64,000 nt of DNA, taken from Gemmatimonadota bacterium (GTDB taxonomy: Bacteria > Gemmatimonadota > Gemmatimonadetes > Gemmatimonadales > GWC2-71-9). The translations under genes and the position numbers were made by a program. Below the pieces are notes generated by a model, which was not told where the DNA came from, searched no databases, and saw only the letters and a program-made list of their open reading frames with translations. Shown in pieces: positions 52,630 through 54,041 of the stretch; the first letter of the stretch is position 1, and every line of letters starts with the position of its first letter. The DNA is taken from assembly GCA_039591615.1 (NCBI GenBank), contig JBDHDH010000027.1, positions 6,585-70,584 on the forward strand. Direction: 5' to 3'.

Positions 52630-53093
52630 ATGACGTCCGGTACGACCTTGAAGGGTCGCCGGGTGGTCGTAACACGACCCGGCGACGACGCCCAACGGTT
52701 GGCCCAGCGCCCGCCATCCGTCCAGCAGAACCAGAAAGAGCGGTTCGGCCGAGCACTGCGCGACTTCCACGGCCGGGTGCTGCTCCGTACATACAGCCTC
52801 ATGGGAACCCGCGGCGACTGCGACCTCCTGCTCTGGCAGGCTGCTGAGGAGCTCGAGTGGCGCGTCCCTTTGGACGAAGCCTGGCAGCGGGTGCCCACCC
52901 GCGCCATCCAAGGCAATCTCGATCCCGCAGCACTCTTTGCCCCCTCCCCGAGCTTCGCGCTCAGGTCCGCGAGATCCTCGGCCCAGTCGGCGGGCGTCCG
53001 GGACACATCTTCAAGCCCGGCCATGGCATCCTGCCGGGGACGCCGCCCGACCCAGTTCGCGGGGTCGTCGACATGGTGAGAGAGCGGACGTGA
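52630..53093 (+). pseudogene. chimeric remnant of heme-biosynthesis genes: HemD-like N-terminal 27 aa / HemQ (coproheme decarboxylase)-like fragment / C-terminal ~85 aa of uroporphyrinogen decarboxylase HemE with a frameshift
   Basis: MTSGTTLKGRRVVVTRPGDDAQRL is HemD-like. [24 protein letters not shown] is HemQ/chlorite-dismutase-family-like. [29 protein letters not shown], then (other frame) [46 protein letters not shown], matches the HemE C-terminus. The frame change is at the C-run near 52939-52950. Confidence 0.65.
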
Positions 53094-53226
53094 CCTCAAC
53101 ATTACTGACCGGCCGACCAGTCAGATAGTGGCTGCGCCTCGGCAGATGTCGGAACGTGCCCTGAGATCGCTTTCGCCGAAGGATGCCGCGGAGATCCTCG
53201 GGATCTCGGTCCGCGACGAGGCGCGT

Positions 53227-54041
53227 GGAAAAAGAATCCTCAGCCTTCCGAATGGCATGGACGAACTCATCGCGGCGCTCGTCTCCCCGGGCCCAAGAAG
53301 ACATGCGCATCCGGCGTCGATCCCGCGTCACCGGAATGACTGCCGACGGCACCGGTTGGAAGATCCAACCGCAGAATCGCAACGACCACGCAGCCTGGCT
53401 CCTCGTGGTGGCACTTCCTCGGCAACAGGCGACACGCCTCTTACTTCCTGTCCTGCATGAGCTTAGAGATCTCCACGTTGCCCCGGCACCACTCTCGAGT
53501 GTGAACGTCTCCCTCGCGTTTTCGCGATTCGATGTGGAGACATCCGCTCCAGGCCAGCGGCTTCGTGATAGCAAGAGAGGGTCGTGTCCCCGAGCAGGGT
53601 GGCCTCTTGGCCTGCTCCTGTTCCTCCAGCAAGTTGCCAGGCCGCGCCCCAGCGGGTCGCGTGCTCCTACGCGCCTTCTACCGCCCCGATGGGACGTGTC
53701 CCATCTCGACCAACGACGGGATCTGGGTCCGGCGCGCCCTCGAGGACCTAGCGCTCACGCTCGGCATCCATGGCCGTCCGGTCAGGAGCTGGGTGGCGAG
53801 ATGGCCCAACGCGTTCTCCCGGAATGACCGGGACCTTCGGGTGTCTGCCGAGCGGCTCGCCGGGGCGCTCTGTCACCGCCGACACATTCAACTGGCGGGC
53901 TCCGCTTTTTTCGGTGCCGGGGCGCTGCCGGCGATGGAGTCAGGGCGCCGGGCTGCGCGCCGACTCCTGGGGATCCAGGCGGCGTGTGCTGAATTCGACG
54001 AGAGTCAGGTGAGACCTGGCACCCGTGACGCCAGCACCTAA
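53227..54041 (+). pseudogene. protoporphyrinogen/coproporphyrinogen oxidase (HemY-type) remnant: 5'-truncated, at least two frameshifts
   Basis: HemY-like segments lie in three frames. The first reads GKRILSLPNGMDELIAALV. The second reads DGTGWKIQ...AAWLLVVALPRQQATRLLLPVLHELRDL..VNVSLAFSRFDV. The third reads SSSKLPGRAPAGRVLLRAFY...WVARWPNAF...IQLAGSAFFGAGALPAMESGRRAARRLL. There is no N-terminal GXGXXG FAD-binding region. Confidence 0.6.

Follow-up and report, generated by a model that had tools for sequence, protein, structure and literature searches.

Positions 52630-54041 of the window, as we call the whole 64,000-nucleotide stretch of contig JBDHDH010000027.1 that was analysed (G+C ~64%), hold the remains of four neighbouring heme-biosynthesis genes, hemD, hemQ, hemE and hemY, of an uncultured Gemmatimonadales bacterium. 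Comparison with intact operons at the same place in relatives leaves us confident that this locus is a fixed, non-functional pseudogene array, the relic of a four-gene hem operon that no longer encodes a functional enzyme. An earlier note, made from the letters alone, had described a collapsed heme locus in which an in-frame HemD/HemQ/HemE chimera is followed by a truncated and frameshifted HemY, and the intact syntenic operons bear this description out. The hallmarks of pseudogenes are all present, namely synteny with intact orthologues, truncation and disrupted frames, and none of the remnants qualifies as a functional HemD, HemQ, HemE or HemY. That operons decay through deletions and frameshifts is well known.

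The relic and its intact counterparts

The ancestral operon has the order hemD, hemQ::Rieske, hemE and hemY and lies immediately 5′ of upp; hemH is not part of the cluster. L001 (JBFJCP010000008.1), which at species level is the nearest relative in the genome collection, has all four genes intact in the corresponding interval, encoding HemD (257 residues, as an open reading frame, ORF), HemQ::Rieske (344 residues), HemE (341 residues) and a short HemY (369 residues). Better comparators are three contigs of a congeneric species, L417 (JBDHAG010000018.1, GCA_039588195.1), L418 and L419, which carry an intact 3.9-kb operon and are collinear with the window on both flanks. They stem from JGI sample 3300041080 and from two metagenome-assembled genomes (MAGs), GCA_039588195.1 and GCA_039588595.1. 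On the left, they share with the window the order outer-membrane CxxCH protein, small Cx4CH protein, NDH-2, TM2 protein and membrane gene, and on the right the order upp, 55-residue ORF, NUDIX, ECF sigma, anti-sigma, holA and SPOR. These contigs represent a different species; nucleotide identity to the window is 70-74%, with 87.6% for Upp and 88% for the sigma factor. The same four-gene order also occurs in L003, L004, L021 and about ten more Gemmatimonadota. The operons of L001 and L417 resemble the window in both flanks, gene order and orientation, and the remnants align to the matching parts of their intact genes with 47-89% amino-acid identity. The window differs in that ~2.5 of 3.9 kb are gone, with truncation of all four genes and frameshifts in hemE and hemY. 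The earlier estimate that ~4 kb of coproporphyrin-dependent pathway genes had shrunk to 1.4 kb was right in size (3905-3926 bp in L417 and L001 versus 1412 bp in the window) and wrong in supposing the full pathway set, as hemH was not in the ancestral cluster.

No intact gene lies between the conserved minus-strand membrane/TPR-like gene at 52071-52480, whose orthologues stand immediately 5′ of hemD in L001 and L417, and upp; in this interval the ORFs and the Pfam search yield partial family matches only. The two genes anchor the locus on its left and right sides. upp (54052-54684, plus strand) is intact (Pfam UPRTase, E 1e-76), and its product, uracil phosphoribosyltransferase, is 86-88% identical to Upp of uncultured Gemmatimonadales MAGs. 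The remnants between the anchors are all on the plus strand and keep the order of the relatives' operon, with upp directly behind them. Chance similarity was ruled out by the E-values and the collinearity.

Of hemD, the first 27 of ~242 codons are left (52630-52710, equal to residues 13-39 of the L001 protein), ~215 codons having been deleted. Residues 1-39 of L001 HemD match 52594-52710 (tblastn, 56% identity, E 2e-7), residue 1 of L417 HemD aligns to 52630, and identity to residues 1-27 of L417 HemD is 67%. The GGAGGG that had been noticed ahead of the chimeric frame is the ribosome-binding-like site of the former hemD, located at 52611-52616, 13 nucleotides 5′ of the ATG at 52630. Pfam gave no match for the HemD remnant (HEM4, PF02602, is a domain of ~230 residues), and its homology is drawn from tblastn and synteny only. 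Fused to it in frame is the remnant of hemQ, a gene of the coproheme decarboxylase/chlorite-dismutase family, with codons ~22-71 of the 344-codon hemQ::Rieske at 52711-52857 (~50 codons kept). Residues 23 to ~70 of L001 HemQ match 52711 to ~52857 (tblastn, E 1.6e-14), and identity to L417 is 88.6% over 35 residues. The remnant covers positions 4-45 of 189 in the Chlor_dismutase profile (PF06778, E 3e-3, 17.6 bits against a cut-off of 25) and alignment columns 23-69 only, where it retains 16 of 16 invariant columns; a complete two-lobed ferredoxin-like domain would span ~190 profile positions.

The hemE remnant, ~80 of 341 codons, is in two parts. Part 1 (52852-52949, ~codons 263-295) is fused in frame to hemQ, whereas part 2 (52950-53093, ~codons 296-341) lies in a shifted frame and ends at the natural TGA at 53091-53093. 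By tblastn, L001 HemE residues 261-295 match 52852-52956 (E 2e-11) and residues 287-338 match 52929-53084 in the other frame (E 6e-14); Pfam places URO-D (PF01208) profile positions 266-300 in the frame 52492-53079 (E 1.7e-4) and positions 299-345 of 346 in the frame 52857-53093 (E 5.8e-9). Codon comparison with L001 traces the frame break, which the earlier note had put in a run of C, to the loss of one nucleotide in CCCCCTCCCC, the C-run at 52940-52949. The conserved C-terminal motif GHIFNLGHG (GHIFNLGH in L001) has become GHIFKPGHG. A full-length barrel of ~340 residues is not encoded, and the remnant scores 23.5 with the TIGR01464 model, whose cut-off is 303.

Of hemY, ~280 of ~365 codons are kept, in three different frames as the earlier note had seen. 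Segment a (53095-53288, ~codons 79-138; tblastn to L417 HemY residues 75-139) includes LNITDRPTSQI, corresponding to LKIADRPVSQI of the homologue P0004. Segment b (53291-53527, ~codons 139-217) is in the second frame, and segment c (53520-54041, ~codon 215 to the end, stop at 54039-54041) in the third. L001 HemY matches 53062-53286, 53291-53527 and 53520-53957 (tblastn, E 8e-31), and positions 308-443 of 443 of the Amino_oxidase profile (PF01593) are found in 53532-54041 (E 2.2e-5), with NCBIfam also matching in segment c. The first ~78 codons, and with them the GxGxxG motif for binding of flavin adenine dinucleotide (FAD), are deleted. The absence of the FAD-binding N-terminus, already suspected, is plain in the alignment, where the remnant begins at ~column 95 and the GGGxAGL block is missing, and the window remnant has no NAD_binding_8 match in Pfam, unlike L001 and L002. 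The claim that conserved HemY positions are degraded, with RWPNAF as the example, did not hold up: intact HemY proteins of this clade read RWPxA[LI]P and not PQY, and all clade-invariant residues are kept from position 100. Every Pfam and NCBIfam match in the locus is partial, and the NCBIfam hemE and protoporphyrinogen oxidase models match far below their cut-offs; the profile searches nevertheless support the proposed similarities to HemE, HemY and HemQ.

Deletions, polymorphism and assembly

Alignment of the locus with the L001 and L417 operons, which the earlier note had proposed as a check, mapped the breakpoints of three deletions. The first (~0.72 kb) runs from ~hemD codon 28 to hemQ codon 22; the second (~1.6 kb) extends from hemQ codon 71 to hemE codon 263, with a microhomology of at most 3 nucleotides (alignment overlap) at the junction; and the third (~0.24 kb) took out hemY codons 2 to ~78. 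Together they account for the shortening from ~3.9 kb to 1.41 kb, and the junctions have no flanking repeats. The first two junctions leave the hemD frame open, for which the chance expectation is ~1 in 9, and a chimeric peptide of 149 residues is therefore all that the old hemD start signals can encode. Some strains also encode a HemY fragment of 245-281 residues that lacks the N-terminus. As to the order of events, the large deletions preceded the loss of one base in the C-run of hemE, and the small frameshifts in hemY, which are still polymorphic, arose later. Retention of clade-invariant residues in HemY and HemQ suggests that the inactivation is recent relative to the divergence of these species. 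Pseudogenisation on a genome-wide scale was considered and rejected, as gaps between gene calls in the window hold ordinary ORFs and a split of the AcrB gene is private to the window assembly.

The correctness of the assembly was judged by comparing six assemblies of the same population from at least five samples, the window's own included. The other five (99-99.9% identity) are L081/L086 (JGI 3300041079), L087 (3300041085), L088 (3300041080), L091 (3300041076) and L092, the last being a Logan assembly of SRR20755638 made with a different assembler. The window, L086, L087, L091 and L092 agree exactly in all three large junctions and in the frameshift of hemE, while L088 starts at 53120 and covers the hemY part only. 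Because the junctions are shared by five assemblies from different samples and two assemblers, the collapse is a real feature of the genome and not an assembly error. The two hemY frameshifts, by comparison, are polymorphic among the assemblies of the population. The break at 53540 is an extra A found in the window and L088 only, and the break at ~53287 is absent from L087, where two extra bases (CG) restore the frame and give a continuous ORF of 281 residues, still without the N-terminus and with a 20-bp deletion near the 3′ end. L091 and L092 carry a hemY ORF of 245 residues.

Variation within the population indicates how selection acts on the remnants. They contain 24 variable sites in 1377 bp (17.4/kb) against 33 in 10,897 bp of flanking genes (3.0/kb), a ~6-fold excess (Fisher p = 2.5e-9). 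Non-synonymous and synonymous changes number 18 and 6 in the remnants and 12 and 21 in the flanks (p = 0.007), and changes at codon positions 1, 2 and 3 are 9, 7 and 8 in the remnants against 3, 8 and 22 in the flanks. The hem remnants thus evolve neutrally under relaxed selection, since their single-nucleotide polymorphisms (SNPs) are dense, mostly non-synonymous and free of codon-position bias.

It is extremely improbable that the genes are intact in the organism and that an assembler collapsed ~2.5 kb, the situation that the earlier note had named as fatal to its reading. The assemblies of this data set do hold private small deletions, the window's own 87-bp loss and AcrB split among them, and several contigs end near 52004-52533. 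Such artefact-like deletions are, however, each private to a single contig, whereas the three large junctions recur in five assemblies from different samples, Logan included, and have no repeats at their edges. In addition, the remnants have a frameshift of their own, changes in a conserved motif and neutral-type polymorphism, and among 5.8 billion predicted proteins there is no near-identical intact HemY from any sample, the best non-remnant match to the hemY remnant being 51% identical. We also regard it as highly improbable that the in-frame HemD-HemQ-HemE chimera or the HemY fragment without N-terminus now functions as a new protein, such as a regulator or one that binds porphyrin. Two independent junctions keep the frame, the native start signals are retained, ORFs of 149-175 and 245-281 residues are called on sister contigs, and invariant residues are preserved in the HemQ and HemY remnants. 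Two in-frame junctions are nevertheless not rare by chance, as given above, and the chimeric ORF runs on in a non-native frame past the hemE frameshift. Changes in the population amount to seven non-synonymous and two synonymous in the chimera and five to none in hemY segment c, in addition to frameshifts and deletions, and no fold-competent domain is left (~50 of 190 Chlor_dismutase positions and ~80 of 346 URO-D positions).

Several observations weigh against reading the locus as a neutrally decaying relic. When read through its frameshifts, the HemY remnant retains every clade-invariant residue from position 100 on, the HemQ fragment likewise retains its 16 invariant columns, and such slight decay by point mutation fits a recent event but could also reflect some residual constraint. 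The SNP comparison is based on 3-7 assemblies per site, and the TM2 gene and upp served as exact-match bait, which biases them to zero change; without them the flank density is 3.3/kb. Furthermore, nearly every JGI/NCBI contig of the data set carries private deletions of 20-180 bp without flanking repeats, and individual small lesions in the window may thus be technical.

These private deletions are found in the window, L081, L084-L090 and L415-L418, and two Logan contigs show none. They are probably technical; some strike essential genes (NDH-2, holA, mutS, AcrB and, in the sister species, hemQ). The window contains at least two of them. One is the loss of 87 bp at 52070, which are retained in L081, L082 and L092; it removed the last codons and the stop of the membrane/TPR-like gene, which now runs into the gene for tRNA-Phe (GAA; 51958-52030, minus strand, predicted by ARAGORN) next to the hem locus. 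The other, a small loss at ~7925, splits the AcrB gene into 7907-9301 and 6261-7925; the gene is intact, with 1028 codons, in two sister MAGs.

Heme supply

Without hemD, no tetrapyrrole can be made endogenously unless the organism has another hemD, and heme is required for respiration. We infer that genes elsewhere in the genome must replace the lost tetrapyrrole genes or that heme must come from outside. Heme is probably still needed, because NDH-2 and a menaquinone-synthesis gene are retained in the window, as are two conserved neighbours that contain CSQCH and CA[LF]SGCH motifs. To our knowledge, complete loss of heme synthesis was long thought to be rare in free-living bacteria.

The hem content 5′ of upp varies among the relatives. 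L002 (8323-9997), L023 and L029 have hemY only, L175 (5001-7087) has only hemQ::Rieske and hemY, and L253 (4274-7738) has hemD, hemQ and hemE without hemY. As relatives differ in which hem genes stand at the locus while the remaining ones stay intact, the hem genes of this clade can evidently move or be replaced. In L423 (3942-4720), hemY is truncated at its 3′ end, lacking about the last 130 codons and running into the upp leader; here decay may have set in a second time, independently. L002 also has an insertion of ~3.6 kb (4726-8323) between the TM2 gene and the membrane gene, including a gene with a tRNA-editing domain, at a site that corresponds to the position of tRNA-Phe in the window.

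That a second hem set, or a second hemD together with another pathway, sits elsewhere in the genome and that the locus is a redundant copy being erased has, in our judgement, close to an even chance. The variable content in L002, L023, L029, L175, L253 and L423 speaks for it, in that hem genes of the clade must often sit elsewhere or be replaceable, and so does the heme need implied by NDH-2, the menaquinone-synthesis gene and the two CxxCH and Cx4CH proteins. In the 64-kb window, however, tblastn found no second hem gene, and all four genes are struck, as expected when a whole pathway loses its value. Moreover, none of the five looked-up proteins among the best HemE matches (P0034, P0036, P0037, P0045 and P0068) belongs to MAGs of this species, P0036 leading to the collinear intact congener. 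The other possibility, to which we assign somewhat less than an even chance, is that tetrapyrrole synthesis is lost and that the species is a heme auxotroph supplied by its community, including the congener with the intact operon. Here the fixed destruction of all four genes in the population, among them hemD, which is needed for every tetrapyrrole, falls into place, and JGI sample 3300041080 contains the congener (L418, Ga0452215_011966) as well as this species (L088, Ga0452215_030916). Free-living lineages, including acI Actinobacteria, have been reported to be heme auxotrophs because they lost biosynthetic genes (Kim et al., bioRxiv 10.1101/2021.01.11.426183). On the other hand, only 64 kb of the genome are in view, no heme-uptake genes were recognised in the window, and the variable hem content of the relatives points to redundancy.

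We tentatively consider that the species could be a recent, true tetrapyrrole and heme auxotroph caught in mid-decay, with fixed deletions, frameshifts that still segregate and a congener in the same samples that could supply heme. If so, the locus would capture gene loss of the ‘Black Queen’ kind as it happens in nature, in a free-living bacterium that respires. It resembles the acI-type auxotrophs in being a free-living respiring lineage without functional heme-synthesis genes at the ancestral locus. In those auxotrophs the genes are simply absent and auxotrophy has been shown by culture, whereas in the window decaying remnants are visible and auxotrophy is a candidate reading. Should the genome hold no other hem genes, the locus would document a route to auxotrophy by a few large deletions followed by small indels, a prototrophic sister species that shares the habitat would be available for comparison, and the addition of hemin would suggest itself for cultivation. 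Should a second set exist, the locus would be a redundant copy in the course of erasure and mainly of interest for annotation. Gene callers report the remnants as ‘hypothetical protein’ and ‘amine oxidase’.

Clade-specific HemQ and HemY and further genes of the window

HemE/UroD, HemY/CgoX and HemQ/ChdC belong to the coproporphyrin-dependent heme pathway of Actinobacteria and Firmicutes, and by its Pfam and NCBIfam names the ancestral operon encodes the same enzyme families. It differs from the pathway of those phyla in that HemQ carries a C-terminal Rieske domain, HemY has ~355-370 residues and hemH lies outside the cluster; in the window, moreover, all the enzymes are incomplete. HemQ of this Gemmatimonadota clade continues at its C-terminus into a fused Rieske [2Fe-2S] ferredoxin domain (Chlor_dismutase and Rieske in Pfam; HemQ_actino and HcaC-like in NCBIfam). 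HemQ::Rieske loci are L001:6805-7839, L417:~4989-6026, L419:208-1245, L421 and L423, together with ~13 species genomes found in a one-pattern genome scan, whereas Nitrospira and other groups have an unfused HemQ. A metagenome scan for HemQ::Rieske gave no contig from the Ga04522xx samples, which may not be part of the collection scanned. A full-text literature search found no description of the fusion. The HemY proteins of the clade are unusually short, ~355-387 residues against ~450-470 in the NCBIfam models (L001:8851-9960, L417:7070-8158 and the proteins P0003-P0029); they skip about profile positions 85-220 and have RWPxA[LI]P where a PQY-type motif is usual. Compared with the decay of the operon, the fusion of HemQ to Rieske and the compactness of HemY may be the more novel features.

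Two further sets of genes in the window deserve mention. Adjoining NDH-2 is a conserved minus-strand pair, the cytochrome-like neighbours of the hem locus. The product of the gene at 48285-49391 is predicted to be an outer-membrane protein of beta-barrel-like type; it has a single N-terminal CSQCH motif and ends in Phe. The gene at 49439-49951 encodes a small protein resembling lipoproteins, in which a CA[LF]SGCH motif is conserved. No Pfam or NCBIfam family matches either protein, and only these motifs support heme binding. Both are conserved in L002 and L417 (80-86% and 59-73% identity). Elsewhere in the window, the plus-strand gene at 519-2630 encodes a type II/IV secretion ATPase (T2SSE, with MshEN as its N-terminal domain) to which a response-regulator receiver domain is fused at the C-terminus; the gene is followed by small pilin-like genes and by response regulators of the HD-GYP type (3602-4723 and 20634-21749).

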